NCBI GenBank assembly: GCA_046350615.1
Contig: JAXMAA010000001.1
Coordinates: 72,480-136,479 of the forward strand
DNA length: 64,000 nt
Source: Candidatus Saccharimonadales bacterium
Lineage (GTDB): Bacteria > Patescibacteriota > Saccharimonadia > Saccharimonadales > UBA7683
Direction: 5' to 3'
This document shows, piece by piece, positions 728 through 60,000 of this stretch (the stretch's first letter is position 1; the number at the start of each line of letters is the position of its first letter). The position numbers and the translations under genes were made by a program. The notes under the pieces are model-generated. The model did not search any database. It saw only the letters and a program-made list of their open reading frames with translations, and was not told where the DNA came from.

Positions 728-2479
728 CTAGAGCCTATCCACAACATACCATTCTACTGATTCGAAGCCGCTCTCCGGACCAACATACTTAAGCGCCTCG
801 GCAAATAAATCGGTAATATCGGGCACTTCCACCTCACTCGAAGCATAACGTGTAATAAGCTCTTCTAGAAACGCCTCCTGATCTGGCGTGAAGACGTACG
901 TCTCTGGTTCTTGTGATACTGCTTGTGCAGAATCTACTGTGTGCTCCGCTTTTGGCTCTGAGGGTTCGATGTGTTTACGAGGCACAGCGTATTTGTTTTG
1001 TAGCGCTTTTTGTAGCGCTGGCGAATTTGCCTCTCGCTCTGCAAGAATAAGCGCATACACTGCATTCTGCTCTTCTCGTCTCTGTCTAATCCACCCAACC
1101 TCGTATGCCGGATCAGGTAGTGCCCGTAGTTTTTCGATGAATTCATCGAGATACTGCGCAACCGCCGGTATGCGAACGTCTGGCGTACCACCAATAAGCT
1201 GACGATGCTTTCTAATATCAATGCCAGGAGCACCATCTTGCTGCACTTCACGCAGCAGGTCACAAAGCTGCGATGAAGGATCATCAGCAAGTACAAGCTC
1301 TATAAGCGAGCCAATAGGAAGCAGCCCTACATTATGTACGCAACCCTTTATTTGTTCGAGATAATCACCAAATGCATGTTCACGAGCCTGGAGAAGTTGT
1401 AGCCGCGTTCGAACGTTCGCCTCCTCTTCTTTTTTAATTGAGGTCGTCTGTGAGATGCGCGGCGCTTGTTGATCGTTTTTTGGAGATTCTAGCGACGGGA
1501 GTAGCTCAAGCGGATCACCAGACAGATGTTGTCGTGGTAATACGATGAATCGCATCTTAGTGAGAGCTTTAGCTTCAATCTGCCGCACTCGCTGCCCTGT
1601 GATACCGTGGGTCGCCCCAACTTCCGCAAGTGTCTTCGGTATACCATCCGCAAGACCGAAGCGGAGCTCGAGTATCTCACGCTCTCTCGTACTCAGAGAT
1701 TCTAGCAAAATCTGCATTCCTTCCTGCAAAACCAGTTCGTGCAGAATCTCATCCATCATTTCGCCGTGGGTGTTGGTAACATATGTCTCTTCTATATCGC
1801 CATCTACTGCCATTCGCCTTGTAGGCCTTCCTTCAAGATCAAAATACTCATACCGGGTACCAAAACCACCATCGAGTGAACGAATATGCGCAAATGTGTG
1901 ACCCACCGCCAACATACCCACGGTATCAAGATCACGCTGATCCGCAATTTCAAAAGGAGACGCTGACGGATTCGCACGCCTTGCACGATGATATTTCTGG
2001 GCAACATTCTCGGGTATGTGCACGAGGTAACCGTGCTGGTGAATAATTCTCTGCATTCGTCCTTGAATTCGAGGATACGCATGCGTTGAAAGTCGCGTGC
2101 CTCGCTCGGGGTCGTACGTCCAAATGGCCTCGCTCATGGCTGCCCATGCCTCTTGCTCTAAATCGCTCTTTTCAGCATACTTCAGATACGCTACATATTT
2201 ATTGGCAAAATAATACGCAAGAGGTGCGTGCAACTCCACAAGCTGTTTATGTGCATCAACGGCTTCGCTTGTTGCGTGTTTTTTATATAGTGTAAGGCGC
2301 TCATAGATCAATTCGTTCGGTAAAATATCAGCTTTATCCAGCGTGCGGTATTCATGCATTGCCGCTTCTCTATCAACACCGCCATCAACTATAGCGAAGA
2401 GTCTTTTGGTTTTTGCATCACGATAGACGTCGCTCTCAGGCGGACTGTTTAGGGTATTTTGTTCTGGTGTTTTCTTCAT
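728..2479 (-). CDS. RNA polymerase sigma-70 family factor with a long uncharacterised C-terminal extension (583 aa)
   Basis: Region 2 is present (DLEQEAWAAMSEAIWTYDPERGTRLSTHAYPRIQGRMQRII, YLVHIPENV), as is the region 4 HTH (REREILELRFGLADGIPKTLAEVGATHGITGQRVRQIEAKALTKMR). About 255 further residues follow that carry no motif I recognise. Confidence 0.8.
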   Translation of the reverse strand: MKKTPEQNTLNSPPESDVYRDAKTKRLFAIVDGGVDREAAMHEYRTLDKADILPNELIYERLTLYKKHATSEAVDAHKQLVELHAPLAYYFANKYVAYLKYAEKSDLEQEAWAAMSEAIWTYDPERGTRLSTHAYPRIQGRMQRIIHQHGYLVHIPENVAQKYHRARRANPSASPFEIADQRDLDTVGMLAVGHTFAHIRSLDGGFGTRYEYFDLEGRPTRRMAVDGDIEETYVTNTHGEMMDEILHELVLQEGMQILLESLSTREREILELRFGLADGIPKTLAEVGATHGITGQRVRQIEAKALTKMRFIVLPRQHLSGDPLELLPSLESPKNDQQAPRISQTTSIKKEEEANVRTRLQLLQAREHAFGDYLEQIKGCVHNVGLLPIGSLIELVLADDPSSQLCDLLREVQQDGAPGIDIRKHRQLIGGTPDVRIPAVAQYLDEFIEKLRALPDPAYEVGWIRQRREEQNAVYALILAEREANSPALQKALQNKYAVPRKHIEPSEPKAEHTVDSAQAVSQEPETYVFTPDQEAFLEELITRYASSEVEVPDITDLFAEALKYVGPESGFESVEWYVVDRL

Positions 2480-2507: not shown

Positions 2508-3566
2508 TTAACGCAAGAACGGGTCGAGATCGCCATCGAGTATTTTTTGTGCATCTTTTACTTCGAACTTGCTGCGGGTATCTTTCACCAATGTGTACGG
2601 ATGCAGTACGTAGTTACGAATTTGGTTGCCCCATGCGGCCTCTTGGTTGGGGCCTTTGAGTTCCGATATTCTTTCGGCATGTTGCTCCATTTGCAGTTGC
2701 GCTAGTTTTGAACGCAGAATCTTCATGGCAACCTCTTTATTCTGTATTTGCGATTTCTCATTTTGAATTGAGACCACAATATTTGTGGGAATATGTGTAA
2801 TACGCACCGCCGAATCGGTTGTGTTCACGCTTTGGCCGCCGTGCCCAGACGAACGATAGGTGTCAATTCTTAAGTCTTTCTCGTCAATCTCAACTTCATC
2901 AGGTGTATCAATTTGCGGCAGAACCTCGACCATCGCAAAACTTGTTTGACGCAGATTATCTGCATTAAATGGGCTCAGTCTGACTAAACGATGTACGCCG
3001 TGTTCTCCCTGCAATTTACCGAAAGCATTGACACCGCTGATTGAAACTACCGCCGATTTTATCCCAGCTTCATCACCAGTCGATTCTTCCAAAAGCTCGG
3101 CTTTATAGCCCGCTTTCTCAGCCCATCTCAAATACATCCGCAGCAACATTGCTGCCCAGTCCATAGCATCCACTCCTCCGGCCCCAGCCTGTAATCTGAG
3201 TACCGCATCGTGACCATCATATGGACCGTTATATTTTAGCTCCTGCTGCAACTCCTTATATTTCTCAAAAACGTGCTTAGACTGCGCTTCGATATCACTT
3301 TTAAGTGATACGTCATCTAACTCCGCCAGCTCTCTGAGATCTGAGATCTGAGACCTGAGGTCTGCCCAAGGCTGAACCGCCGCAGAAAGTTTCGCTTGCT
3401 GCTTAGAAAAATCCTGCGCCTGCAAGTTATCTTTCCAAACATCCGGATCTTCCAATTGCTTCGTAAGAGACGAGAGCTTTTCTACTTTTTCTGCCAAGCC
3501 CGCCTCTTGCCAAGCCGCTTCAAACTCACTCTGTAAATTCGTGATCTGTTTTTTCAACTCCTGCAT
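2508..3566 (-). CDS. prfB: peptide chain release factor 2
   Basis: It has the GGQ motif (SGHGGQSVNTTDSAVRITHIPT) and the RF2-specific SPF tripeptide (RLSPFNADNLRQTSFA). The frame is continuous, with no internal frameshift site. Confidence 0.95.
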   Translation of the reverse strand: MQELKKQITNLQSEFEAAWQEAGLAEKVEKLSSLTKQLEDPDVWKDNLQAQDFSKQQAKLSAAVQPWADLRSQISDLRELAELDDVSLKSDIEAQSKHVFEKYKELQQELKYNGPYDGHDAVLRLQAGAGGVDAMDWAAMLLRMYLRWAEKAGYKAELLEESTGDEAGIKSAVVSISGVNAFGKLQGEHGVHRLVRLSPFNADNLRQTSFAMVEVLPQIDTPDEVEIDEKDLRIDTYRSSGHGGQSVNTTDSAVRITHIPTNIVVSIQNEKSQIQNKEVAMKILRSKLAQLQMEQHAERISELKGPNQEAAWGNQIRNYVLHPYTLVKDTRSKFEVKDAQKILDGDLDPFLR

Positions 3567-3583: not shown

Positions 3584-4876
3584 TCAGCGAATAAGCTCAT
3601 ACGCCCAGGGTTGAGACCGACCAAGCTTTTGGTAATCAAACGAGCTTTCAGGAACCTCAAAAGATAGTTGATACTCAGAACTGCGTCTTTGTGCCATATG
3701 ATACGCCGTGCGAAGCTCCCCTGTTTCGCCAACACATTCAAATGGCTTCATAACACCGTCGATCCCCAGTAATCCCTTAAATGTTTCCGTAAGGCCTGGC
3801 TTTGCAAACAAATCCTGGCCGCCAAAGAGCATTCTAAGCTGCTCCGGTTCTATAAACGGCGCAAACAAAAGATAGCTATTGGCACATTTCGGGCAATCAC
3901 CACACCATTGAAGCTGGCTATTATCCGCGCCTTGCTGATAATTAGCTTGGTTACATGAGGAAAATGTGTGCCCAAATTGCTCCCAGGCATGCTTTGTGAA
4001 AAGCTCGGCAATTTTAAGTTCCGAAAAACCCCGTAGAGGCGAACCAATCTGCATATCCGCCGAAACATACCTCTGAACATATTCACTTAACAATTGCTCG
4101 GCCTGCCACGCTTTTGACCATTGGTGATTAACTGGCATCTGTCCAATATATTCATGCGGCTCCTCGCCCTCTTGGCCGATCGCTGCCAATACCATGTTCT
4201 GACCATGGAGAATGGCATCAATCAGCGCATACGCCTCTACTATGTACGTTACTGGAACATGTCCGTTGAGGCCGCCGTTTGCCTTTGCCTGCATAAGCGC
4301 ATCTCTATCAATGTTTCGCTGAATAGTACGAAGTGGTGTACCAAGTGTATCAAGAACCCGCGGGTGCGCCTGGCCAGAGGTAACATAGAGCGGTGTGAAA
4401 TCATGTTTCTTTTCACGAAGAAGTGTCGCCAGAAGTAGCGAATCTTTTCCGCCGCTTTGCAGAGCAACCGTACCAAGACCCTGATATGATGCCGCCGTGC
4501 GATGGACTCCTTCGCCTGCAAATACAGCTACATCCTCGAGTGCAAGATTGTTTTCAAACAAGAATTGGCTGAGACCTTCGGTGTATACTTTTTGCAAAAA
4601 CTGCGCCTGCCACAAATCTGGTTGGGCGTTCTTAAAAATCACTTTTTTGGTTGGGAAAGCTTTATAATACGATGCTCCCGCCACATAAAAAGCGAGTTTT
4701 AGTGCGCTTTCAAGCACTGCGCTACTTTGGCCAACTTGGCTTTGTTCGTCAAATACAGCGGTTTCAGAAAAATGTCTCTGGCCGTCAAAACTGTAATTAA
4801 ACCGGGCAGTATGTGTTGCCTCATCATAGCTGTATGATTCAAAAACAAACGCCACGTATCGCGATTGATAACTCAT
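3584..4876 (-). CDS. PP-loop (SGGKDS) ATP-pyrophosphatase-superfamily protein, translationally coupled to murD; candidate MurL-type UDP-MurNAc-L-Ala-L-Glu epimerase
   Basis: It carries the motif LQSGGKDSLLLATLL. Its start overlaps the murD stop (ATGA at 4873-4876). The C-terminal half is Cys-rich (SSCNQ...WCGDCPKCANSY). Confidence 0.5.
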   Translation of the reverse strand: MSYQSRYVAFVFESYSYDEATHTARFNYSFDGQRHFSETAVFDEQSQVGQSSAVLESALKLAFYVAGASYYKAFPTKKVIFKNAQPDLWQAQFLQKVYTEGLSQFLFENNLALEDVAVFAGEGVHRTAASYQGLGTVALQSGGKDSLLLATLLREKKHDFTPLYVTSGQAHPRVLDTLGTPLRTIQRNIDRDALMQAKANGGLNGHVPVTYIVEAYALIDAILHGQNMVLAAIGQEGEEPHEYIGQMPVNHQWSKAWQAEQLLSEYVQRYVSADMQIGSPLRGFSELKIAELFTKHAWEQFGHTFSSCNQANYQQGADNSQLQWCGDCPKCANSYLLFAPFIEPEQLRMLFGGQDLFAKPGLTETFKGLLGIDGVMKPFECVGETGELRTAYHMAQRRSSEYQLSFEVPESSFDYQKLGRSQPWAYELIR

Positions 4877-6159
4877 GCTAGCTCCCCCACCGCTGCCTTA
4901 AATTGTTCTCCGCGATCTTTAAAATCTTTAAACATATCAAAACTTGCACAACCTGGGCTGAGCAGCACAATATCTCCATCCGCACTTTCGCTAGCAGCTT
5001 TCTGAAGGATTTGAGGCATATCCATATCTGTTAAAATCTCGAACTTGTCAAACGTAGCTGTATCAAACGACCTGCCGATCGCCGCTGCCGTCTGACCAAT
5101 GAGTAACACTTTTTTGATATTTTGTTGTTCAGTAATGGCCGCTGTTAGCTCAGAATAATCAAGCCCCCTATCAAAACCTCCGCAAATGAGCACTATTGGC
5201 TGATCGAAAGAACGAATGGCCGCGACTGTTGCCCCTGGTGCGGAAGAAAAGCTATCGTTGTAATACGCCACACCTTTAATCTCATCAACGAACTCCAATC
5301 GATGCGGCAACCCCTTAAAGTTAGCGACTGCCGACCTAATGGCTCTTATATCCTGCGTGTAGCGCCACGCTGCAGTAACAGCCGCACAAACGTTTTCGAG
5401 GTTATGCGCGCCAATCAGACCGATATCTGAAGTACTGCAAACAACCTGGCCTTCAATGACAATATCCTGCCCGTTCACATAGGCTCCTTCGGGAGTGAAA
5501 AACTTTCTTTTCCCGGCAGCAGACCGCGTCGCAATCTCGGCGGCATACCGATTTGTCGGATGATAGATAAGTAAGTCTTCTGATTTTTGATGGGTGGTGA
5601 CATTCGCTTTAGCCGCTACATACTCATCCATCGAGGCGTGAACATCCATATGATCAGCCTCAATCATCAAAACCACCGCTATTTCGGGCGATTTCTCCAG
5701 ATCCCACAACTGAAAGCTCGAAAGTTCAAACACAACAATATCATCACCTTGAACCTGTTCAAGAATTTCAAGAGCCGGCAAACCAATATTGCCAACCAAG
5801 TGCACCGTTTTCCCGGCTGCTTTTAAAATTTCAGCAATGAGCGTTGATGCTGTACCTTTACCCTTTGTGCCTGTTACGCCAATAATCTGAGCCGGACATT
5901 TTGCAAAAAACTCATTCGTTGCCGACCAAACTTTACCATCAGTTTTAATTTTATCCGGCCGCAAACTCGCTGTCCGAATCACCATATCGTAGCCTTCTAG
6001 GCGCTCAAAAGCATCTGTACCAATAACACTATCTACCCCTCCAGGCAGTGGATGAGAAGGCATTTTTTCATCAAAAACAGTAACTTCGGCGCCTTTATCA
6101 AGCCAGTACTGGCAACTCGCCTCGCCCTCAACACCATAACCAGCAATCGCAACCTTCAT
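4873..6159 (-). CDS. murD: UDP-N-acetylmuramoyl-L-alanine--glutamate ligase (MurD family; D- versus L-Glu specificity undetermined)
   Basis: It has the Mur ligase P-loop IGVTGTKGKGTASTLIAEIL, an N-terminal Rossmann segment MKVAIAGYGVEG, and the overall MurD length and architecture. Confidence 0.85.
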   Translation of the reverse strand: MKVAIAGYGVEGEASCQYWLDKGAEVTVFDEKMPSHPLPGGVDSVIGTDAFERLEGYDMVIRTASLRPDKIKTDGKVWSATNEFFAKCPAQIIGVTGTKGKGTASTLIAEILKAAGKTVHLVGNIGLPALEILEQVQGDDIVVFELSSFQLWDLEKSPEIAVVLMIEADHMDVHASMDEYVAAKANVTTHQKSEDLLIYHPTNRYAAEIATRSAAGKRKFFTPEGAYVNGQDIVIEGQVVCSTSDIGLIGAHNLENVCAAVTAAWRYTQDIRAIRSAVANFKGLPHRLEFVDEIKGVAYYNDSFSSAPGATVAAIRSFDQPIVLICGGFDRGLDYSELTAAITEQQNIKKVLLIGQTAAAIGRSFDTATFDKFEILTDMDMPQILQKAASESADGDIVLLSPGCASFDMFKDFKDRGEQFKAAVGELA

Positions 6160-6229: not shown

Positions 6230-6736
6230 TTAATCAAAATGATGTGATCCGAATACGGGATGCGTAAGGCTGATCGCTACGAATCTGCCTATTTTTAATT
6301 CGGAAACAATATCAAGGAGCACATCTCGGTTATCGTGATCGCTCGCCCACACGCTTTTTTGTATTTGTTTAAAACGAAGCGCTTTGAGTTCTCTAACAAG
6401 CAATCTTCTTTGGTAATCATGTGATTGCGGGATGTCGAAAAGCACTAGTACATATCCACTTCTGAGTGGTGTGGCCTCAAGTTTTTTGAATCTCTCAATC
6501 AGTATCATCGCCTCATTCTCGAAATGAACTCGTGATCCGGTCAGCACCAATAAATTATCCTTTTTCGCTTTAACAAGTGCGTTCTTTAGGCTCGACTCAG
6601 CCTTGCCCGTTTTTTCAGCCAACTCTCTAAAAAACTGGCTAGGCTTAAAGGTTAGGTTAAGATTAGCATCGGAAAACGGAATCAAGGCTTCAATAACATA
6701 GCCAAGTGCACTCCCCTGTTTTATTCGCTTTGCCAT
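6230..6736 (-). CDS. PaaX-like / Cas2-fold domain protein (putative transcriptional regulator)
   Basis: The C-terminal half, YVLVLFDIPQSHDYQRRLLVRELKALRFKQIQKSVWAS, matches the Cas2/PaaX-type pattern (hhhhYDIp...R..h...L...Gf..hQ.SVW). The N-terminal part is winged-helix-like. Confidence 0.5.
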   Translation of the reverse strand: MAKRIKQGSALGYVIEALIPFSDANLNLTFKPSQFFRELAEKTGKAESSLKNALVKAKKDNLLVLTGSRVHFENEAMILIERFKKLEATPLRSGYVLVLFDIPQSHDYQRRLLVRELKALRFKQIQKSVWASDHDNRDVLLDIVSELKIGRFVAISLTHPVFGSHHFD

Positions 6737-8854: not shown

Positions 8855-11448
8855 CTAGTGCTTCTTCTTACGGTTTTGACGTTGTTGTTTTCGGACTTTT
8901 TTGATGGTGGTCTTCTTTTTAGCGGTTGGAATTTTAATGCGCTTCACGACGGTGGCATCGTAATCTTCAGCACTTGAGGCGACACCGCTAGTGATTTGGT
9001 TGGCGTTATCGGTAGATTGGCGAGCCATCTTGGTAAGTTCAGTTTCAACAGCATGTTGCACATGATGCGGCTGCAAGTGGTTCAAGCCTTTTACCACCTC
9101 ATTTCGCAAAGTTGATTGCATAGTTTCAAACAAGCCTTGGCCCTCCCGGCGATACTCTACCAACGGATCTTTCTGGCCAATTGAGCGCCAGCCAATACCG
9201 TTCCGTAGGTGTTCCATGTTCTCAAGATGCTCCATCCATAACTGATCAAGCACCTGCATAACGGCCTCCCGTTCAACCTGACGCATTAAGTCTGTACCAA
9301 GCGCCTCTTCACGATCAACATAAAGTTCATAAGAGTATTCTTTAAATCGTTTGAGTCGCTCTTTTTCATCTTCGGTTGTTTTAAGATCTTTCAGTTGCTT
9401 TTCGCTCAGCGGGAAGACTGTTTGCAGCTCGCGGTAGAACTCTTTTTTATCCAGCGGTGTAATGCGAGCCCAGGTCTCGGCCTCTTGCTCTACCATTTGC
9501 TTAATCTGCTTACTGATATCTTCAGCTAACAGTGCACGGCGGCGAATGGTATAAACGGCTTTACGATGGCGGTTCATGACATCGTCATATTGAACAACAT
9601 TTTTGCGCGAATCGTAATTGTAGCCTTCCACCTTCTTTGAGCGTTCTCGAGAGTCTTTGAAACTGCCCTATTTTCAATAGCCTGGTCATCCTCAATACCA
9701 AGTCGATCCATCAGAGCCTTCACACGATCACCACCGAAAATACGCATCAGGTCGTCTTCGCAAGAAACATAGAATTGGGTCATACCAGGATCACCCTGAC
9801 GACCACAGCGACCACGAAGCTGGTTATCAATACGGCGAGATTCATGCCGTTCTGAACCAATCACCACTAGACCGCCGAGCTCCTTCACCCCTTTGCCAAG
9901 CACAATGTCGGTACCACGTCCAGCGATGTTAGTTGCAAGTGTAACAGCTCCTTTTTGGCCGGCCTGCGCAACAATTGCAGCCTCACTTTCATTATTCTTG
10001 GCATTCAAGATCTGGTGCGGAACCTTTGCCTGAGCAAGCAAACTCGAGAGCAGCTCGTTTTTTTCAATCGAAACCGTACCGATCAATACCGGCTGGCCTT
10101 TTTTGTGCAGCTCCTTCACTTCAGCAATAAGAGCATTGAACTTACCAGCCTCATTTTTATAAATACGGTCGGTTTTATCGATACGTGCTACTGGCATGTT
10201 CGGCGGGATCTCAATCACATCAATACCGTAGATCTGGTTAAACTCCTCAGCCTCAGTTGAAGCCGTACCGGTCATACCGGAGAGTTTATCGTAAAGGCGG
10301 AAGTAATTTTGGAATGAAATCGTTGCCAACGTCTGACTCTCTTGCTGGACCTCAACACCCTCTTTAGCCTCAATTGCCTGGTGCAAACCCTCGTTGTAAC
10401 GACGACCGTGCATCAAACGGCCGGTAAACTCATCGACAATGATAATTTCACCATCGCGGGAGATAACATACTCCTTCTCGCAGTGGAATAAAGTTTGCGC
10501 CTTAAGAGCCTGATCCATATGATAGATCAGCTTAATATGCTCGGGATCATAGAGGTTATCAATTTTGAGCAGCTTCTGCACCTTTTCGACACCCTCATCG
10601 TTCAGCGCTACTGAACGGCGTTTTTCATCAAGCTCATAATCGTCGGGGGTGAGCTGGCGTGCAACCTCGGCAAACATGGTGTACCCAGAACCGCTATCAG
10701 TAGATGGTGCAGAAATAATAAGCGGCGTGCGAGCCTCGTCGATCAAAATAGAATCTACCTCATCAACAATCGCAAAATTAAGTTCACGCTGCCGTAAATT
10801 ATCAGCATCATTCACCATATTGTCGCGCAAATAATCAAAGCCAAACTCATTATTAGTACCGTAGGTGATATCAGCCGCATAAGCCTCTTTGCGAGTACAA
10901 GGCTTAAGATGCTGCATACGCTCATCATCATGTTTTTCATTGGTAAAATCAGCGTCGTATATAAACGATTCATCGGCAATAATTACACCCACACTCATAC
11001 CAAGCGCATCATAAACTGCAGCGTTCCAACCTGCATCACGCTGTGCCAGATAATCATTAACCGTTACCACATGCACGCCCTTGCCACTCAGAGCATTTAG
11101 ATACACTGGCAACGTTGCCACCAGAGTCTTACCCTCACCCGTACCCATTTGCGCCACGTTGCCTTCGTGCAACGCCATACCGCCAATTAGCTGGACATCA
11201 AAATGACGCTTACCGAGTGTTCGTTTTGAAACCTCTCGCACTACCGCAAACGCATGCGGCAGAATATCATCAAGCGTCTTCTTCTCTTTCAATTGTTTTT
11301 TAAATTCTTCTGTTTGTTTAGCGAGCTTTGCAAGGCTCATCTTTTCGTAAACCGATTCCAGCTCGTTAATTTTGACAACTTGCTTCTTCAACCGTTTAAC
11401 AGTCTTAGCCTGCGGATCTCCAAAAACAGTCTTCAGTGATAATTTCAT
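8855..11448 (-). CDS. secA: preprotein translocase ATPase SecA, interrupted by a single-base frameshift near 9636-9638
   Basis: Track ORFs 9574-11448 (DEAD motor: [38 protein letters not shown]) and 8855-9631 ([27 protein letters not shown]) together make a complete SecA. The junction reads ...[13 protein letters not shown] once one A is added. Confidence 0.9.
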
Positions 11449-11767: not shown

Positions 11768-13522
11768 CTAGTTGCTGCCGGAGTCCTCGCTGGGCTCCGA
11801 GCCAGGCTGCTGACGCTGGTCGAGCTCGTCGGCCATCGCCTGGATGCAGCTCACCAGCTGGTTGGGCGTCAGCTCACTGGGGTTCTGACCACAGAACTCG
11901 GTGTCGTTGCCGTCACCTTCGCTCTCGTTGTCGTTGCCCGTGGCACCAACGCTTACCAGCTGCGGCGTGATGTTGTCACTAGCGCTGATCTCCAGCCGGT
12001 AGACCACTCGCCCCTTCAGCTCGCCGAACGCCCGCCAGACGTCACCGTCGACAGGCGTGAACTCGACGAGCTTTCCACCGTTGCTGATGAACGTCCCAGC
12101 ATTCTTGGCCAGGTAGTCCAGCGCGTCGGCCTCCAGGTTGTCGATGTTGATCCTGCGCGGATCATCCTCACCGAGGATGTACACCGACAGCGAGTTGAGG
12201 CGTCCGCCGTCCACGACGTCGGCCGGGGTGATCGCATACGCGACGAAGAGCTCCGAAGTGCTCTTGCGCAACGTCAGCGGGGTCACCCACTCCAAGCGAC
12301 CGGTGGTCTTGTTCTTGAGCAAGTACTCACTGGTGTTGCCCGCCTGTGCCTCCGAGGTGGCCGGTTCGAAGCCGAAGCTTCGACGGTCCTCATTCTTGCG
12401 CCCGGCAGCCCACCTGGTCATGTCGCGTTGCCGCTCGACCAAGCTCATGGGGTACACCGGACCGGGGTAGTCGCCGGCCTTGGCCTCGCTGACATACGTC
12501 AGCTTGACCTGGCCGTCTTGACCCCGAACGATTATCAGCCCACCAGCCGTATCCACCGTGCGATCCTTGAACTGGATCTGCTTGGTGGTCGGGATCACCA
12601 CGATCGGCTCATCGCCGTCGCAGTAGCCCCACACGTCGGACTGCTCGTAGCGAAGCGCCGGGTAGCGCTCAGCCAACAGGTTGGGCAGCGAGTTCCCTCG
12701 CTCACCAGCGAATGCTCGGTCGAGGTCGTACTTGCCCTCGAACTTGCAAGTGGTGGTCTGGTTGGAACCATCCCACTCGCTGACGCCGCCCAGTCCCTGC
12801 TCACGACCGCTGCCGTCGAGCACACCGCTCCAGCGGGCGGGCTGCTCGCCCCACTCGTTGAGGTATGTCACCATGCCCTCGTTGAGCGAGATCCGCTGCT
12901 CGTCACCACTGGTCCGCTTGATGGCGAAGACGGCACCGTCGAGGGAGCCGATGCGCGGCTCCCAACCCGCCTGGTCCAGCTCACCCTCCTTGATGCAGGT
13001 GTGCATGTCGCTGGCGTCCACCATGTCACAGCCGAAACGGCTGGACTCGGTGGCACCCTCCAGGAGGTAGCGCACCGTCGCCGGTGTCTCATCCAGGTTG
13101 GGAACGATGAAGGTCGTGGCCCGGTTGTAGTACCGGGCCTCGTCCTTGTCGTTATCCCAACCGACGGTGGTCAGCTTGAACACGCCGCCCACAGTGGCAA
13201 GCACCATGATGATCGCGATGACCAAGCTGGCACCCTGCCGAGAGACGGTGTGGCGCTCCGTTGTGCCGTAGTACCGACCTCGGTCGTACTCCTCGACGTC
13301 CGCCATCACGATGACAGCAGAGCCGATGAAGCCAACCGTGAGCCAGGCCCACAGCCACCACGAGCCCGACCAGACATTGGCCAGCATGAACTGGTCCATG
13401 TACTGGTTGAGCTTCATGCCTTCGAAGAGGAATCGGCGCACGAGCCACACCAGGCCGTATAGGCCTGGCATCCACCCCCACCATGCGGCGAGGGCTCCGA
13501 GCTTACCCTTCCAGGTTCGCAT
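11768..13522 (-). CDS. high-GC, horizontally acquired membrane protein of unknown function (584 aa; 3 N-terminal TM helices, large extracytoplasmic domain, acidic tail)
   Basis: This is the longest ORF in the region. The predicted TM segments are LGALAAWWGWMPGLYGLVWLV, SWWLWAWLTVGFIGSAVIVMA and ASLVIAIIMVLATVGGVFKL. The local sequence is visibly G/C-rich, and many overlapping ORFs appear in other frames only here. Confidence 0.75.
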   Translation of the reverse strand: MRTWKGKLGALAAWWGWMPGLYGLVWLVRRFLFEGMKLNQYMDQFMLANVWSGSWWLWAWLTVGFIGSAVIVMADVEEYDRGRYYGTTERHTVSRQGASLVIAIIMVLATVGGVFKLTTVGWDNDKDEARYYNRATTFIVPNLDETPATVRYLLEGATESSRFGCDMVDASDMHTCIKEGELDQAGWEPRIGSLDGAVFAIKRTSGDEQRISLNEGMVTYLNEWGEQPARWSGVLDGSGREQGLGGVSEWDGSNQTTTCKFEGKYDLDRAFAGERGNSLPNLLAERYPALRYEQSDVWGYCDGDEPIVVIPTTKQIQFKDRTVDTAGGLIIVRGQDGQVKLTYVSEAKAGDYPGPVYPMSLVERQRDMTRWAAGRKNEDRRSFGFEPATSEAQAGNTSEYLLKNKTTGRLEWVTPLTLRKSTSELFVAYAITPADVVDGGRLNSLSVYILGEDDPRRINIDNLEADALDYLAKNAGTFISNGGKLVEFTPVDGDVWRAFGELKGRVVYRLEISASDNITPQLVSVGATGNDNESEGDGNDTEFCGQNPSELTPNQLVSCIQAMADELDQRQQPGSEPSEDSGSN

Positions 13523-13673
13523 CGTATCAGTTTCCTTTCAATTGGGAAATGTGAATATACGGGAAGTAACGGTCCCAACCGAGGTAAGCTCCTCAGCCAG
13601 AAGGACTTGCGCCCTCCCATATATACCGATGTGCTCTGGTACAACTACATATATGGAATGACCAAATCGATTA

Positions 13674-13697
13674 CGTGACATAATAAAAAATGTCACG
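13674..13697 (-). promoter_or_regulatory. palindromic operator-like site CGTGACAT-N8-ATGTCACG overlapping the predicted transcription start
   Basis: It is a perfect 8-bp inverted repeat separated by an 8-nt A/T spacer. It begins 6 nt downstream of the -10 box at 13704-13709. Confidence 0.45.
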
Positions 13698-13703
13698 CCT
13701 ATA

Positions 13704-13732
13704 ATTATAGCAAAAATGATCTACTTTGTCAA
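13704..13732 (-). promoter_or_regulatory. perfect-consensus sigma-70 promoter (TTGACA-17-TATAAT with TGC extension) facing the high-GC gene
   Basis: The minus strand reads TTGACAaagtagatcatttttgcTATAAT, with the -35 at 13727-13732 and the -10 at 13704-13709. Confidence 0.7.
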
Positions 13733-13937
13733 TACTCTAACCCTGTTGAGTAAATGAGGTGCTAAAAAATACTGCGACCACAATAATATCCTCTAGAGGC
13801 CGAGAAAATGACGAGTTATAAAGCAAAGCAGTTACACGAGTTTATCTGAATTTACAGATGTAACTCTAATGGTGTCCTCACTCCGTCTTACAACGATTTG
13901 CTGGAAGGTGCGATCAGCTTTAACTGACCATAAAAAC

Positions 13938-13966
13938 ATTATAGAGCATACTCTACTGTATGTCAA
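13938..13966 (-). promoter_or_regulatory. second perfect-consensus sigma-70 promoter (TTGACA-17-TATAAT), just outside the IS30 end
   Basis: The minus strand reads TTGACAtacagtagagtatgctcTATAAT, with the -35 at 13961-13966 and the -10 at 13938-13943. I see no convincing ORF before the next promoter. Confidence 0.6.
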
Positions 13967-13988
13967 GAGATCTATCCTTGAAACAGGG

Positions 13989-15100
13989 CTGCTCTCAACT
14001 ACTCAGCGCAACATAACCTCGTTGGCTGTGGCTTCTCCTTTCTCAGCGAGTAGCTGGCTAAATGCTTCATAGGGTGTCCGGAATTCTAAAGCCTTACGTG
14101 GCCTGCTGTTAAGCAGGTCTTGCACGTACTTGACCTCCACTCGACTGATCTTAGTAAACTCGGTACCTTTGGGGAAGAACTGTCTAATGAGGCCGTTGGT
14201 GTTTTCATTCGTTCCACGCTGCCAAGGGCTTTGTGGGTCAGCAAAGTAGACCTGCATCTTGGTTTGCTCAGTAAAGAGTTTGTGGCGAGCCATCTCGCTG
14301 CCGCAGTCGTAGGTCAGCGTTAGCTTCATTTGCTCTGGTAGGCTCGTAAGCTCCGCGGCAAAGCGTGCGGCTACATGTTCAGCATGTTTGCTTGCGACCG
14401 GTACTAGAATAACCGTCCGGGTTGTACGCTCCACCAATGTGCCAAGCGCCGAGTGACCGCCCTTACCAATAATAAGGTCACCCTCCCAGTGGCCGGGAAT
14501 AATCCGGTCTTCTACTTCTTTAGGGCGCTCGTCAATGCTCACCAGATCTGGTATGGGGCTGTGCTTGGTTCGGTCGCCAGCCGGTCGTTTGCTACCCCGG
14601 CTACGCCTGTGCTGCCGCAACGCTGCTTTGAGCTCTTTTTTGAGACTACCGCGAGCCAAGCAGAAGACGTACGTGTAGATGGTTTCGTGGCTAACGCGCA
14701 TACTCATGTCATTAGGATACTCGAGTTTTAGTCTGGCAGCTATCTGCTGCGGTGACCAGTGCTCAACTAAGATCTTGTGGTGTACATAATCCCTGAGCCG
14801 CTTATTAACCAACAGTTTGTTTGTCTTGCGGTGGTTGCGCTTGGCATCCGCCATTTCTTGGGCGAAGGTAGCTCGGTAATATTTGGGAGTATAGCGTAAC
14901 CGAGATAACTCTCGGCTCATGGTGCTAGTTTCACGCTTCAACTGACGAGCAATCTGACCAAGAGTGTGACCCTGAGCTAGACTGCGACTAATTTCTTCGC
15001 GTTCCTCGGCAGTGAGTCGTTTGTATGCAGTTGTTTTCATAGTAGTTATAGCCTACCAGCTGAAACTGCTTACGTTGCGTTAGTTATTTGAGAGTAGCAG
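13989..15100 (-). mobile_element. IS30-family insertion sequence (~1.1 kb)
   Basis: It contains a single transposase ORF and imperfect terminal inverted repeats: CTGCTCTCAACTACTCAGCGCAAC (13989-14012) versus the reverse complement of 15074-15100, CTGCTACTCTCAAATAACTAACGCAAC. The transposase stop lies inside the left IR. Confidence 0.75.
14003..15040 (-). CDS. IS30 family transposase
   Basis: It has an N-terminal HTH (LTAEEREEISRSLAQGHTLGQIARQLKRETSTMSRELSR), the segment HWSPQQIAARLK, and a DDE core (HWEGDLI...TLTYDCGSEMA...GTNENTNGLIRQFFPKGT). Confidence 0.95.
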   Translation of the reverse strand: MKTTAYKRLTAEEREEISRSLAQGHTLGQIARQLKRETSTMSRELSRLRYTPKYYRATFAQEMADAKRNHRKTNKLLVNKRLRDYVHHKILVEHWSPQQIAARLKLEYPNDMSMRVSHETIYTYVFCLARGSLKKELKAALRQHRRSRGSKRPAGDRTKHSPIPDLVSIDERPKEVEDRIIPGHWEGDLIIGKGGHSALGTLVERTTRTVILVPVASKHAEHVAARFAAELTSLPEQMKLTLTYDCGSEMARHKLFTEQTKMQVYFADPQSPWQRGTNENTNGLIRQFFPKGTEFTKISRVEVKYVQDLLNSRPRKALEFRTPYEAFSQLLAEKGEATANEVMLR

Positions 15101-39603: not shown

Positions 39604-42291
39604 GTGACAATATTTTTGATCTTACTTCTAACATTGCTTGCTACGGGAGCAATATTTTTTATTTTCAACCTCTTTTTAGACACAAAAAAGAAACATGCGT
39701 GGTTTAATGCCATGGAATCGAAGGTGCTACTTATAGAAATACCTCGCACAAACGATAAAAAAGAGCTTTCGGCCGAACACATGTTTGCAAGCTTGCACGG
39801 TATTTTAAAAAACAAACGCGAGCTAAAAGCGCATCAAGAATATCAAGAACATATCGGGTTTGAGATTGTCAGTATCGGTAATAAAATTCAGTTTTATATC
39901 TGGACACCGGCTATGCTTACCTCTTTTGTGGAAGGGCAAGTATATGCTCAATATCCCGAGGCTCAGATTAAACAAATTGATCCGGAAGATGATTATGTTC
40001 ACCAAATACCCGAAGGCCACTACCGTCAAGTAGTCGAGATCGGCTTAACCGAAAATGAGACTCTGCCAATTAAAACATTCCTCAGCTTTGAGGTGGATCC
40101 ACTCGCCGCCATTACGGCAACACTTACCAAGCTCGAGGCAGAAAACGAGATGCTTGGTATTCAAATTCTGGCCAGACCTGTTGATGATACATGGCACAAA
40201 AATTCAGCCAAAAAAGCAGAGTTAATTAAAAATGGCGGTGGTTCATCAATCTCAAGACATGGCTGGCTTGCGCAAACCACAGGCGCACTTTGGAAGCCAC
40301 CGGAAGAAACCACCACTGCGACAAAATCTGAAATTTCAGAACGTGACAAAACTCGCATTACAGCTATTGAAGAAAAAAGCCGCAAACTTGGCTATCAAGT
40401 TAAAATCCGGGTTATTTATAGTAGTCCGCCCGAGGTACAACTCAGCTCAAGAATGAAGATTCAAGCACTACTAGGGGCATTTAAGCAGTTTAATACCACC
40501 AATTTGAACGGCTTTAAACAAACCACCAGCAAGCTAGAAGATTTTGATAAATATAAAGCTCGTAGTTTCTTCGATAAAGGTTTTATACTTAATATCGAAG
40601 AGCTCGCTAGCGTGTACCACCTCCCCCACAGCAACGTAGCCACCCCCGGAATCGTCTGGGCACGTGCACGAACCGGCGAGCCACCATCAAACTTACCTAT
40701 CTATACGCCGGGTTCGGTTGATATCAGCCCTATCGGCGTTACAACATTCCGAGGTGATTATCAGTACTTTGGCCTTACCCGTCGCGATCGTGGCCGTCAC
40801 GTATATATTATTGGTCAAACTGGCGTTGGTAAAAGTGGTCTACTAGAGCTTATGACGTCGGCAGATATTACCACCAATCAAGGATTTGCGCTGATTGACC
40901 CGCATGGTGATTTTGCCATCAATACCCTCCAACGAATTGCCCCAGAACGAATTAAAGACGTTATCTATTTCAATCCGGCCGATACCGAATTCCCCATTGG
41001 TTTTAATCCACTTGAGGTACAGAACGAATCGCAAAAAACACTGGTAGCTTCAGAAATCATCGGTTCGCTCAAGAAAATGTTTGATAGCTGGGGGCCACGC
41101 CTCGAATACATTTTGCGCTACACCATCCTCTCTTTGCTAGAATACCCCAACACAACCATGCTTGATATCACTCGCCTGCTGACCGATAACAAGTTTCAGA
41201 AAGAGGTCGTGAGCCGAGTGACCGACCCTGTTGTTCGCAACTTTTGGGATAAAGAGTACGCCAGCTGGAACGAAAAATTTAGAACTGAAGCTGTTGCGCC
41301 AATTTTAAATAAAGTCGGCGCCTTCACTGCAAATCCTATCATTCGCAATATCGTTGGCCAGCCAACCAGTGGCTTTAATGTTCGTCAGGTTATGGATGAA
41401 GGCAAGATCTTGGTTATGAACCTTTCGCGCGGCTTAATTGGCGAGGATAACGCCGCTATTCTTGGCTCCCTGCTAGTTACCAAAGTACAGCTTGCTGCCA
41501 TGAGCCGAGCCGACATTGCAAAAGTTGAAGATCGCCGCCCCTTCTACTTTTATGTTGATGAGTTTCAAAACTTTGCCACCGAATCGTTTGCAACCATCCT
41601 CAGCGAGGCTCGCAAATATGGCCTCAACCTCACCATTGCTAATCAGTATATTTCCCAGATGATACCCGAGGTCAGCGGTGCCGTATTTGGCAACGTGGGA
41701 AGCATTATATCGTTCCGGGTTAGTCCTGAGGACGCAACCTCATTGCAAAAATACTTTGAACCGCAGTTTGAGGCTGCCGACTTAATTCAACTCAATAACC
41801 GCGACTTTCTGGCGAACCTTTCAATCGGGGGTGAAAAAACTGTACCATTTTCAGCCCGAACCATGGATTTGCCCGGATATATAGAGGGTTCAATTGCACA
41901 GATAATAGTACACAACCGTCAACTTTTTGCACACCCTAAGGCTGAGATTGAAGCCTTAATTCGCGGGACAAAAGAACATCCCACAAGCAGTCAACAAAAA
42001 TCAACTCCCACCACGCCACGGGTTTTTGATAGAAATACTGCCACACAGAAGCTTGCCCGTTCCGCTCTGGGTGTTGAGCAACTCACGCATGCTGTTCCCG
42101 AACAAACTGAGTCTGTCGGCGCCATCAACACAAAATCTTCAGATCAAGCGCCCATCGAAAGCACAAAGAAGAAGAAAACTCGCCGTGGCAAACGTGGCGG
42201 CAAGAAAAAAGCCCAAGCACAACCTCCAGAAGGCCCACCCACAGCTCCTAACTCAAACAATAGCGAAGAGACAGTGTATCTCCGGAAGTAA
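39604..42291 (+). CDS. membrane-anchored P-loop ATPase of the VirD4/TraD/TraG (type IV coupling protein-like) family, 895 aa
   Basis: It has an N-terminal TM (IFLILLLTLLATGAIFFIFNLFL), Walker A HVYIIGQTGVGKSGLLELM followed by IDPHGDF, Walker B FYFYVDEFQNFAT, the segment LTIANQYISQM, and a basic low-complexity tail KKKKTRRGKRGGKKK. Confidence 0.7.
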   Translation: MTIFLILLLTLLATGAIFFIFNLFLDTKKKHAWFNAMESKVLLIEIPRTNDKKELSAEHMFASLHGILKNKRELKAHQEYQEHIGFEIVSIGNKIQFYIWTPAMLTSFVEGQVYAQYPEAQIKQIDPEDDYVHQIPEGHYRQVVEIGLTENETLPIKTFLSFEVDPLAAITATLTKLEAENEMLGIQILARPVDDTWHKNSAKKAELIKNGGGSSISRHGWLAQTTGALWKPPEETTTATKSEISERDKTRITAIEEKSRKLGYQVKIRVIYSSPPEVQLSSRMKIQALLGAFKQFNTTNLNGFKQTTSKLEDFDKYKARSFFDKGFILNIEELASVYHLPHSNVATPGIVWARARTGEPPSNLPIYTPGSVDISPIGVTTFRGDYQYFGLTRRDRGRHVYIIGQTGVGKSGLLELMTSADITTNQGFALIDPHGDFAINTLQRIAPERIKDVIYFNPADTEFPIGFNPLEVQNESQKTLVASEIIGSLKKMFDSWGPRLEYILRYTILSLLEYPNTTMLDITRLLTDNKFQKEVVSRVTDPVVRNFWDKEYASWNEKFRTEAVAPILNKVGAFTANPIIRNIVGQPTSGFNVRQVMDEGKILVMNLSRGLIGEDNAAILGSLLVTKVQLAAMSRADIAKVEDRRPFYFYVDEFQNFATESFATILSEARKYGLNLTIANQYISQMIPEVSGAVFGNVGSIISFRVSPEDATSLQKYFEPQFEAADLIQLNNRDFLANLSIGGEKTVPFSARTMDLPGYIEGSIAQIIVHNRQLFAHPKAEIEALIRGTKEHPTSSQQKSTPTTPRVFDRNTATQKLARSALGVEQLTHAVPEQTESVGAINTKSSDQAPIESTKKKKTRRGKRGGKKKAQAQPPEGPPTAPNSNNSEETVYLRK

Positions 42292-57044: not shown

Positions 57045-60000
57045 TTATGATCCGGCTTTTTTGAGAGAAATTACAAGCTCTTCGCCCTCAACCTTCACGG
57101 CCATCGCAAAACCATCACCTACCTCACCTGCCTCATTTGCGAGAGTTTCAGCTTTGATGGTTTCAAGATGTTCTTCAATAGCAGTCTGTAGTTGGCCATT
57201 CTCGGTTGCTAGTTGCAGAGTTATGCGATCATCAACGTTCAGGCCAGCAGCCTTGCGTACACTTTGCACATGGCGGACCACTTCACGCATAAGACCTTCG
57301 CGTCTGAGTTCTGGCGTGATTTTTTCATCGATTGCTACTTCTTTGCCAGTCCTTACTGCTTTTACATTCAACTCATCGAGTAAGATTGGTTCAAAATCGA
57401 CATGTTCTCCCAAGCTTAGCACTGTTACGCTCGCCAGCGGCTGTCGCACTTTAAGCTGTGCCTTAGCACGAAGACTGAGACCTTCATTAACATACTCGCG
57501 AACCGTGTCCATATCATCCATCACTAATTGATTAATATGGCCGACCGACAACCAATCCTTAAGGTGGATCGATTCGCCGTCGCCTGTGAGGTTTTGATAC
57601 AGCTCCTCTGCCAGAAATGGTGTAAATGGCGCAAGAAGATAGGCCAAGCGAACCAAAACATAATGGAGCGTTTTATAGGCATCGGCTTTGTCGCCATCAT
57701 CTTCTGACTTCCCACCTTCGCCAGAGGCTACGGTGGACTGACGCCAGAAACGGCGGCGTGAACGGCGCACATACCAGTTAGAGGCATCGTCAAGAAACGG
57801 CAGAATTGGCGCAATGGCATCTGGTAAATTGTACTCGTCCATATGTTTTTCCACCTCAGCCACTAGTTGATGAAGCCTTGAAACTACCCAGATATCAAGC
57901 GGGTTCTTGAGATCTTCAACCGGATCACTTAAGACTCCGTCATACTCCCAGCCATCAACTTCGGCATACATCGTGAAGAAATCGTACATGTTCCAGATCA
58001 TGGCGAGTTTGCGCGAAACATCACTAACATCTTTATCTTGCAGGCTAAAATCTTCAGCATTCATCACCGGAGAACCGAGCAAAAGCAATCGTTCAGCATC
58101 AGCAGAATATTTATCCATCACTTCATTCGGATCGGTATAGTTACCGCGTGATTTACTAAGCTTATAGCCATCGTTACCCATCAAATTACCAGTAACAATG
58201 ACGTTTTTAAATGGTGCCTGGCCAAACAAGCCGACGTTGACCGCCTGCAAATAGTAGAACCACGCCCGCACCTGCCCCACGTATTCCACGATGAAATCGC
58301 CCGGGAAGTTAGCCTCAAACTTCTCTTTGTTCTCAAACGGGTAATGGAACTGGGCAAAGGGCATTGAGCCGCTCTCGAACCAACCATCCAGCACCTTCTC
58401 GATTCGTTTGTAGTGTACACCGTCTTTTTCAAACTCGACTGCATCGATCCACGGCCGGTGATAGTCTTCCAGCCGTTTGCCGCTGAGTTCTTCCAGTTCA
58501 TCGTAACTACCCACTACAATTTGATGTTTCTTGCCTTCTTTATCAATACCTTCCCAGACCGGCATAGCCGTTGCCCAGAAGCGGTCGCGTGAGAGGTTCC
58601 AATCTGGTGCAGCCAAGATGTTTTTTTCAAATCGTCCGTGTTTTACATGTTTCGGGAACCAATTAATTACCTCAGTATTTTGCGCCAACATTTCCTCTCG
58701 CTGGCCATCAATATTCATAAACCAGCTTGGGTGAGCTCGGTACATAAGACGTGTTCCACAGCGATGACAGTGAGGGTAACTGTGCCTGTAGTAATCAATC
58801 TTCCAAACAACCCCATCTTCGTGCAGCTTTTTAGCAATTGGCTTGTTAGCCTCCCAAACATTTTCGCCTTTCCAATCGCTCTCAGTATACAAACCGTTTT
58901 CATCAATGACATGCACTACTGGGATCTTGAGTTTCTGTGCCAATACAAAATCTTCTTCACCATAGGCGGGCGCGAGATGCACAATACCCGAGCCTTCTTC
59001 AGCACTAAGATCAGGATATTCCCAAACTTTATGTGCATTTTCGCCGCGATCTACTCCAAGAAGTGGCTCGTATTCAAGGCCAATGAGTTCTTTGCCCTTA
59101 ATATCATCACGAGTAATTTTGTATTCAAGCTGCTGATGTTTTTCATCAGTCAAAACCTTCTCGACTAAATCTTTATGCAAAATTAAATGCTCGCCTTCAG
59201 CCGTTTCAACTTCAGCGTAGGCTTCATTTTTACCAACTCCAACCGCAGTATTAGCCGGAAGTGTCCACGGAGTGGTTGTCCAGGCTAGGAGATGAGAATC
59301 GTGCACACCACTCTGTGTCTTTTTATCATAGTCTAGATTACGGTTTTCAAGAAAAATTCTGCTGCATAGAGATCCCCTGTCAGCAGCATCTTTTAAGATT
59401 GCAGGATCTTTTGACCATTGGAGATTTGCGTAATGCGTACTACCGCCTTGAAGCTTAACTTCACCCGTAAATTTCGTTATTTTATACTCACTAAGCTCTA
59501 GATCATAACCAATCCTAGAGATTTCTTTTTTACCCTCAAATTCAACTTGCTCAACGTCTATTCCTAACTTTTCTTTTGCGCCACGCTTTACCGCCTCTTC
59601 AAGCGTTTCCCCACCTCTAAGTGAAGCAGCAGCTAGACCCCAGACGTTCGGTAGGCTGTCGTCGTCCGCAAGCCTTTTCACAAAAGTAAACTCACCTGCC
59701 TCATTCTCAATATAGTAAGCAACTGCTTGTTTCTTAGTTCGCTTTAGTTTGAATTTTACGTACACACTTGGGTCGGTTACATCTTGGTATGCACCCGGAT
59801 CCATGGTAACTTCGGCTTTAGAAAGCGGTGTGGCGTCGCGTGTGCAGTACATCAGTACCCGCTCGCCTTCGTAGATTTTGCCCTTCTCAAACAATGTTTT
59901 GAAGGCCCACCAAATGCTTTCCATATATTCTTTATCCATGGTTTTATAAGCGCCCTTAAAGTCAACCCAGCGGCCAATTCTATCTACGTAATCTTCCCAC

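Follow-up and report, generated by a model that had tools for sequence, protein, structure and literature searches.

Where the reduced genomes of the candidate phyla radiation (CPR) obtain the D-glutamate (D-Glu) of their peptidoglycan is a question on which two overlapping genes in a 64 kb stretch of DNA from a Candidatus Saccharimonadales bacterium have a bearing. This stretch (64,000 nucleotides; contig JAXMAA010000001.1, positions 72,480 to 136,479), hereafter called the window, is the sequence scope of all statements on the gene neighbourhood, and the pair consists of a gene for a MurD-family ligase and a gene for a 430-aa protein with a PP-loop. An earlier account of the locus, drawn from the nucleotide sequence and its open reading frames (ORFs) and referred to below as the sequence-only reading, had tentatively proposed that the two genes represent the MurD2/MurL pathway, in which UDP-MurNAc-L-Ala first receives L-Glu, which is then epimerized. 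This proposal was supported in the present analysis by homology to MurL, predicted fold, motif conservation, synteny and gene fusions, and we consider it likely, by analogy with the assayed enzymes, that the overlapping pair encodes a MurD2/MurL route to peptidoglycan D-Glu. The pathway itself is already known; what is new here is the occurrence of the pair in a phylum outside the published range.

The MurD2/MurL pathway was described by Feng et al. (2017), as reviewed in PMC8788868 and PMC5808125. The Xanthomonas and Micromonospora enzymes comprise an L-Glu ligase and a one-way, ATP-to-AMP epimerase, the assayed MurL acting from L to D only (PMC8788868), and the epimerase requires only ATP and Mg2+ to give a D-Glu product with the formation of AMP (PMC8788868, PMC5808125). 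In the literature the range of the pathway takes in Xanthomonadales, Micromonosporaceae and a few Alphaproteobacteria (PMC8788868), and mention is made of orthologues of low similarity from cyanobacteria, from a fungus and from an amoeba (PMC5808125). The host of the window, a member of the Saccharibacteria and thus of the CPR, lies outside this range, and our literature searches found no relevant paper linking MurL to Saccharibacteria or CPR, nor one linking MurL to the PP-loop or QueC fold.

Similarity of the 430-aa protein to MurL

Both overlapping ORFs were present where the sequence-only reading had placed them, and the ATGA overlap, the SGGKDS motif and the C-terminal cysteine cluster were likewise read in the sequence as described; both genes lie on the minus strand, which had not been given before. 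The ATGA combines the stop codon of the ligase gene, which is located upstream, with the start codon of the gene for the 430-aa protein (hereafter murL), and a Shine-Dalgarno-like GGGGGAG run is found 8 nt upstream of this overlap. The murL stop codon is followed after 17 nt by prfB (3566..2508, minus strand).

Among the NCBIfam models, the 430-aa protein matched solely NF041275, which represents the MurL of Xanthomonadales (E = 7.1e-76, 255.5 bits), and the match was collinear, extending from aa 8 to 399 of the protein and from position 8 to 397 of the 447 positions of the profile. Similarly, when aligned with L072, a MurL from Lysobacteraceae that itself scored 784 bits on NF041275 and hence above the equivalog cut-off of 700 bits, the protein was 33% identical over 419 aa (E = 6e-58). 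The similarity to MurL on which the sequence-only reading had made its proposal depend is thus present over the full length, and MurL is the only family matched. As judged by these alignments, the 430-aa protein is a full-length MurL homologue. With the above E-value on the MurL model and 1688 homologues detected at E ≤ 1e-5, the ligase/MurL observation is not due to chance. Close homologues of the window MurL are named Candidatus Saccharibacteria or Saccharimonadales, the closest GTDB species representative being 59% identical, and are mostly annotated as ‘hypothetical protein’ in NCBI and IMG, with the name MurL given to a few and QueC to one in IMG. None of the models in the Pfam copy used matched the 430-aa protein; homologues in a large database carry PF26298 and PF26299, two models which this copy lacks.

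Motif conservation was assessed in 138 full-length MurL-family sequences (137 representatives obtained by clustering at 50%, and the window protein) and also in a diverse alignment of 40 sequences. The GGKDS core was kept in 137–138 of the 138 sequences, which answers in the affirmative whether MurL itself possesses a PP-loop, a point that the sequence-only reading had been unable to decide. The residue preceding this core is Ser in the Saccharibacteria type (29 sequences) and Gly in most others (107 sequences), so that a strict SGGxDS pattern misses most MurLs. The residues H206, H251, K255, S307, N309, P378 and C381 are invariant in the family and were all found in the window protein. Its cysteines are located at positions 308, 325, 328 and 331 (C-x16-C-x2-C-x2-C), each of them conserved in 131–134 of the 138 sequences, and at position 381 within a KPFEC motif, in which P378 and C381 were present in 138/138, K377 in 135/138 and E380 in 122/138 sequences.

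Taken together, the window protein shares with known MurLs a full-length collinear alignment at ∼33% identity, the motifs GGKDS, NGH-P, NHQ-SK, SSCN, WCG-C-KC and KPFEC, and the genomic coupling to a MurD-type ligase. It differs from them in that its PP-loop begins with Ser instead of Gly, and the gene order is also different, as in Xanthomonas murL precedes murD2 with an overlap of 20 nt, whereas in the window the ligase gene precedes murL with the ATGA overlap.

Predicted fold and relation to PP-loop enzymes

An AlphaFold2 model of the window MurL, built on 39 homologues, had a mean predicted local distance difference test score (pLDDT) of 93.8 and a predicted template modelling score (pTM) of 0.93. 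When this model was compared with the PDB using Foldseek, the best matches were QatC (9y02_B, 9y01_B), QueC (3bl5, 2pg3) and Cap9 (9nto_B), followed by YcfA, TrmU, MnmA, ThiI and argininosuccinate synthetase; nearly all top matches were PP-loop ATP pyrophosphatases. No structure of MurL itself was found in the PDB, either by sequence search or by fold search. PP-loop ATP pyrophosphatases AMPylate a carboxyl or keto oxygen with the release of pyrophosphate (PPi), and QatC binds Zn through a C-xn-C-x2-C-x2-C motif that QueC has conserved as well (PMC13376578). The modelled PP-loop fold of the window MurL would be compatible with the formation of AMP and PPi, and such a pyrophosphatase fold fits the AMP formation reported for MurL (PMC8788868, PMC5808125). 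The QueC-like fold was attributed to the MurL family as a whole, in which the GGKDS core is invariant. The discoverers of MurL reportedly described it as a protein without known domains and are said to have proposed an adenylation of the α-carboxylate, for which the PP-loop assignment may now provide a structural basis.

The likeness to QueC, QatC and Cap9 is confined to the level of the fold. It comprises a PP-loop core of Rossmann-like form with its SGGxDS loop, as well as the cysteine pattern C-xn-C-x2-C-x2-C, and extends to the chemistry predicted for MurL, which would be a carboxylate adenylation. In contrast, no significant sequence-profile similarity was detected past the PP-loop: hhalign of the MurL profile with E. 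coli QueC aligned only the 23-residue PP-loop, with a probability of 30%, and the 430-aa protein had no profile match to QueC, TilS, MnmA, ThiI, QatC or Cap9 in Pfam, NCBIfam and PADLOC. MurL differs further from these enzymes by an additional N-terminal domain of ∼130 aa and by a C-terminal helical region bearing the KPFEC motif, and its adenylate would feed epimerization and hydrolysis, not the formation of an amide or a nitrile. Membership in the QueC family was rejected on the grounds of the missing QueC profile match and the restriction of the hhalign alignment to the PP-loop, and an assignment as QatC/Cap9 defence protein was rejected since PADLOC gave no match. Clustering with the PP-loop enzymes of tRNA thiolation or queuosine synthesis, which the sequence-only reading had named as evidence to the contrary, was not observed at the sequence level.

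Coupling of MurL to a MurD-type ligase

A scan of GTDB species genomes yielded at least 593 loci (species) with MurL relatives, the best 80 of which were analysed. CPR are dominant among these 80 loci and are represented by Saccharibacteria (∼35), Peribacteria/Peregrinibacteria, Parcubacteria, Gracilibacteria, Nomurabacteria and Moraniibacteria; the other loci belong to Alpha- and Gammaproteobacteria (including Lysobacteraceae), Actinobacteria (Micromonosporaceae, Acidimicrobiia) and Dormibacterota. In 76 of the best 80 loci a MurD-type ligase adjoins MurL, the remaining four ending at a contig edge, and 16 representative proteins are MurD–MurL fusions, in which both domain orders occur. These data suggest a wide occurrence of the MurD2/MurL route among CPR bacteria, in which the pairs are mostly annotated as hypothetical.

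In a neighbour-joining tree of the ligases (100 bootstraps), the window ligase was placed in a 33-member clade that contains no canonical MurDs (96/100 bootstraps), and all 33 ligases of this clade are encoded directly upstream of MurL. A 4-nt ATGA or GTGA overlap joins the two genes in 19 of the 33 members, the window counted, and two members (L007 and L027) carry in-frame ligase–MurL fusions; those with neither overlap nor fusion are, with two exceptions, spaced by −17 to +16 nt. In the Saccharibacteria lineage the pair is kept as an overlapping or fused unit. As the assayed MurL proceeds only from L to D, a ligase that is coupled or fused to MurL across the clade must deliver the L-Glu adduct, and this clade-wide association with a presumably one-way MurL would be, by analogy, the strongest argument for a MurD2-type function of the window ligase.

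The same collection contained two divergent MurL subtypes in metagenome-assembled genomes labelled Saccharibacteria (L028–L037, L041 and L054 versus L002–L025), one being 45–59% and the other 31–36% identical to the window MurL, and both are located downstream of ligases of the 33-member clade. The loci L033 (labelled Acidobacteria) and L038 (labelled Gammaproteobacteria) clustered with CPR sequences and may be mis-binned contigs. MurL homologues of ∼28–30% identity, annotated as hypothetical, were also found on three Pseudonocardia plasmids.

Specificity positions of the ligase

The ligase scored 336 bits on TIGR01087 (murD; cut-off 212), contains the Pfam domains Mur_ligase_M and Mur_ligase_C, and has all the equivalents of the catalytic residues K115, N138, E157, H183, K198 and D317 of E. 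coli MurD, the numbering of which was verified. It resembles canonical E. coli MurD in passing this cut-off, in domain architecture and in overall identity (∼30%, tblastn), but differs from it by the change of NDSK to NDSF, by which Lys319 is lost, by the location of its gene outside the dcw cluster and by the invariable pairing of its clade with MurL.

The determinants Glu197, Arg358, Pro433 and Phe435 of X. oryzae MurD2 correspond to Asp182, Lys348, Ala414 and Leu416 of E. coli MurD, and of the MurD2 mutants the double mutant E197D/R358K acquired D-Glu specificity, E197D alone was moved towards D-Glu, and P433A and F435L were unaltered in specificity; the E. coli MurD mutant K319T, on the other hand, gained the use of L-Glu (PMC8788868). 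The residues of the window ligase (E. coli positions in parentheses) are D169 (D182), F304 (K319), S306 (T321), R331 (K348), A405 (A414) and F407 (L416). Arg331 and Phe407, at the positions of Arg358 and Phe435, respectively, are thus MurD2-like, and Phe is found at the latter position in several canonical MurDs too. With X. oryzae MurD2 the ligase has in common the MurD fold, the catalytic residues, these two positions, the lack of Lys319 and a gene beside MurL, whereas it differs in having Asp instead of Glu197 and Ala instead of Pro433. In the annotated murL–murD pair of X. sacchari the four positions are occupied by E, R, P and F, with Ile at 319, and the X. sacchari MurD2 is only ∼30% identical to the window ligase.

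The lack of Lys319 was derived as a signature in this analysis by comparing 71 ligases that adjoin MurL in the GTDB loci (72 for the Lys319 count, X. sacchari MurD2 included) with 15 unlinked ligases, of which the PDB supplied five and a plasmid collection, through the chromosome fragments it contains, the other 10. Lys319 was missing in 72/72 MurL-linked ligases, position 319 in the 71 being occupied by Ile (28), Phe (20), Tyr (13) or Leu (10) and never by Lys; in the same 71 sequences Arg was found at position 348 in 62, and position 182 was Glu in 42 and Asp in 28, which makes the Asp of the window ligase a frequent residue among linked ligases. By contrast, 13 of the 15 unlinked ligases have Lys319. 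In the two exceptions, the Oscillospiraceae MurDs of Pusillibacter faecalis (L086:2959-4335) and Subdoligranulum variabile (L095), this otherwise conserved residue is replaced by Ile, and their glutamate stereospecificity is of possible interest. In these alignments the loss of Lys319 appears as a sensitive but, because of the Pusillibacter and Subdoligranulum MurDs, not fully specific mark of MurL linkage.

Sources of D-Glu

Queries for D-Glu ALTERNATIVES by tblastn with E. coli MurI and IlvE, the latter a class-IV aminotransferase serving as proxy for D-amino-acid transaminase, gave no match, either within the 64 kb of the window or within any of the 80 related loci, the longest of which reach 21 kb. 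Likewise, Pfam and NCBIfam scans of the ORFs in the window revealed no racemase, transaminase, second murD, or other mur or dcw genes. The earlier remark that no glutamate racemase lies near the pair hence holds across the whole window, and a murI gene together with a canonical ligase, an arrangement regarded at that time as contrary to the proposal, was not what we found, as the window contains no murI and the clade of the ligase is always coupled or fused to MurL. By extension, murI may be absent also from the remainder of the host genome.

Proposed reaction and alternative explanations

In the proposed pathway the ligase would attach L-Glu onto UDP-MurNAc-L-Ala, converting ATP to ADP through an acyl-phosphate. 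MurL would take up a second ATP at its GGKDS PP-loop and adenylate the α-carboxylate of the terminal L-Glu with the release of PPi, in parallel to the chemistry of the QueC family on carboxylates. This adenylation would acidify the α-proton, for the exchange of which Cys381 of the KPFEC motif, H206, H251 and K255 are candidates, the catalytic roles of all these residues, Cys381 included, being putative; an alternative exchange route through an oxazolone intermediate would be chemically plausible. Hydrolysis would then give the D-Glu product and AMP. To our knowledge, epimerization through a carboxylate adenylate in a QueC-like PP-loop/Zn enzyme is a mechanism class that has not been described for epimerases. 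We are inclined, if only slightly, to extend this proposal and to regard MurD2/MurL as the main source of peptidoglycan D-Glu in Saccharibacteria and in several other lineages of CPR/Patescibacteria (Gracilibacteria, Peregrinibacteria/Peribacteria, Parcubacteria), and MurL as a QueC-like PP-loop/Zn enzyme in which a carboxylate adenylate and the invariant Cys would drive one-way epimerization.

Several observations weigh against the assignment of the pair to the MurD2/MurL pathway. With its 255.5 bits the 430-aa protein does not reach the equivalog cut-off of NF041275 (700 bits); however, the MurL of Actinoplanes (Micromonosporaceae) also remains below it with 393 bits, indicating that this cut-off tests clade membership and not function, and MurL orthologues of Micromonosporaceae (Micromonospora, Salinispora) are among those assayed (PMC8788868). 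A MurL homologue on the Pseudonocardia alni plasmid pPaSha1 (L096:4986-6386) stands alone with no Mur ligase adjoining, and thus not every MurL-family protein need serve the MurD2 pathway. In the ligase tree all MurL-linked ligases together were monophyletic in only 26/100 bootstraps, so that a single MurD2 clade was not supported; no grouping that united the window ligase with the MurD2 of proteobacteria and actinobacteria and left out canonical MurDs was obtained, and its phylogenetic membership in the Xanthomonas MurD2 clade is therefore not claimed. The sister group of the 33-member clade (96/100 bootstraps) consists of the two Oscillospiraceae MurDs without Lys319, those which deprive the signature of full specificity, and no MurL was found beside the one of Pusillibacter faecalis. 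Finally, Asp169 and Ala405 of the ligase are canonical-like. Of the four published specificity residues of MurD2 the ligase carries two, Arg and Phe, and its pattern at these positions is mixed.

As an alternative, the ligase may be a canonical or relaxed MurD that mainly uses D-Glu, provided by a murI located elsewhere or scavenged from the host, Saccharibacteria being epibionts, with MurL as a repair or backup epimerase for misincorporated L-Glu. Asp at the position of D182, Ala at that of A414 and the lack of a MurL alongside the Pusillibacter enzyme all speak for this possibility, and the best match of the ligase among solved structures (PDB sequence search), S. agalactiae MurD (3lk7, E = 8.9e-66), is a D-Glu ligase in which the position of K348 is likewise occupied by Arg. 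D-Glu is still preferred by S. mutans MurD with Arg at this position (PMC8788868). In addition, an active MurI is reported in Ca. Saccharimonas aalborgensis, as cited in PMC11974145, so that some members of the phylum at least possess a MurI. Nevertheless, the conserved overlap and the fusions within the same clade argue for an obligatory sequential action of both enzymes and not for an occasional repair, an ATP-consuming backup enzyme of 430 aa would be difficult to explain in a very small genome, and tblastn detected murI in neither the window nor the related loci. We regard a mainly D-Glu-using ligase as unlikely.

Much less probable still is that the MurL homologue adenylates the α-carboxylate of Glu for an attack by ammonia, giving iso-glutamine in the manner of MurT/GatD, or by another nucleophile, with no epimerization taking place. 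Although the enzymes with the nearest folds (QueC, QatC, Cap9) use their adenylate for the attack of a nitrogen nucleophile and the 430-aa protein matches no model in the Pfam copy used, it retains every invariant residue of the MurL family, a family which includes the cut-off-passing Lysobacteraceae MurL along with proteins related to the enzymes assayed from Xanthomonas and from Micromonosporaceae. The assayed MurL needs just ATP and Mg2+ and gives a D-Glu product, as mentioned above, and no glutaminase or amidotransferase gene adjoins the pair. The proposition that the 430-aa protein is an enzyme of RNA or nucleobase modification (QueC/TilS/MnmA type) or of defence (QatC/Cap9 type) placed beside murD by coincidence, to which the PP-loop motif with the Zn-Cys cluster, the top Foldseek matches QatC and QueC and the single QueC annotation in IMG might have pointed, is effectively refuted by the lack of any such profile match, by the QueC alignment of the PP-loop only and by the adjacency to a ligase across many phyla together with the fusions, which is not a coincidence. 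The L-Glu ligase and epimerase activities of the MurD2/MurL pathway would thus be those most probably expected of the window pair by analogy with their assayed counterparts.

Implications for CPR cell-wall synthesis

With the MurL–ligase pair recognized, metabolic reconstructions of cell-wall synthesis in CPR have one gap fewer. If MurD2/MurL is indeed their main D-Glu route, this would explain how a normal stem peptide is made in racemase-poor CPR genomes, and the pathway would be no curiosity of Xanthomonadales and Micromonosporaceae. A testable mechanistic frame, that of carboxylate adenylation, is provided for MurL by its QueC-like fold together with the invariant GGKDS loop and the Cys4 site, and the candidates for a catalytic role are H206, H251, K255 and C381. 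The MurD2/MurL pathway has reportedly been proposed as a target for narrow-spectrum antibiotics, an argument that would be altered by a much wider distribution, human oral Saccharibacteria included.

Coordinates and other features of the window

Table 1. Features of the ligase–murL locus (window positions).
Feature	Position	Strand	Remarks
MurD-family UDP-MurNAc-L-Ala:glutamate ligase, proposed MurD2-type (L-Glu-adding)	4873..6159	-	428 aa; TIGR01087, Pfam, clade
MurL homologue, 430 aa	3584..4876	-	NF041275, identity to Lysobacteraceae MurL, AlphaFold, Foldseek
ATGA stop/start overlap (translational coupling)	4873..4876	-	Direct sequence reading
PP-loop SGGKDS, aa 141-146 of the 430-aa protein	4439..4456	-	Sequence and family conservation
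Four cysteines (Cys308, Cys325, Cys328, Cys331) predicted to form a structural Zn site as in QueC/QatC	3884..3955	-	Conservation, motif likeness
KPFEC motif, the invariant Cys381 of which may act as acid/base in α-proton exchange	3734..3745	-	Putative role

In scans for promoters and terminators the counts did not exceed those of shuffled sequence, and neither tRNA genes nor Rfam families at the gathering threshold were found in the whole 64 kb window.

Directly upstream of the ligase gene, a 168-aa ORF (6230-6736, minus strand) encodes a PaaX_M/Cas2-like domain (Pfam E = 1.9e-8) and has weak Cas2 matches in PADLOC, with no CRISPR context. In a sigma-70 family protein of 583 aa (728-2479, minus strand), regions 2 and 4 fall within aa 80-310, and the protein is extended at its C-terminus by ∼270 aa without a domain match. 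The secA gene (8855-11448, minus strand) is divided between an ORF of 624 aa (9574-11448) and an overlapping one of 258 aa (8855-9631), the latter carrying on the SecA sequence, and this split may reflect a sequencing error, a frameshift or the presence of a pseudogene. A high-GC island at 11768-15040, with a GC content of 0.578 in 12001-14000 as against ∼0.46 elsewhere, comprises a 584-aa ORF without a Pfam match (11768-13522, minus strand) and an adjoining IS30 transposase (14003-15040), and was probably acquired horizontally. Further along the window, a domain of the TrwB/type IV secretion coupling-protein kind (E = 5.6e-10) is encoded within an 895-aa protein (39604-42291, plus strand), and the catalytic domain of a 1122-aa class-I tRNA synthetase (57045-60413, minus strand; tRNA-synt_1, Anticodon_1, DUF5915), probably IleRS, encloses a stretch that is NUDIX-like (aa 228-295, E = 3.3e-6).

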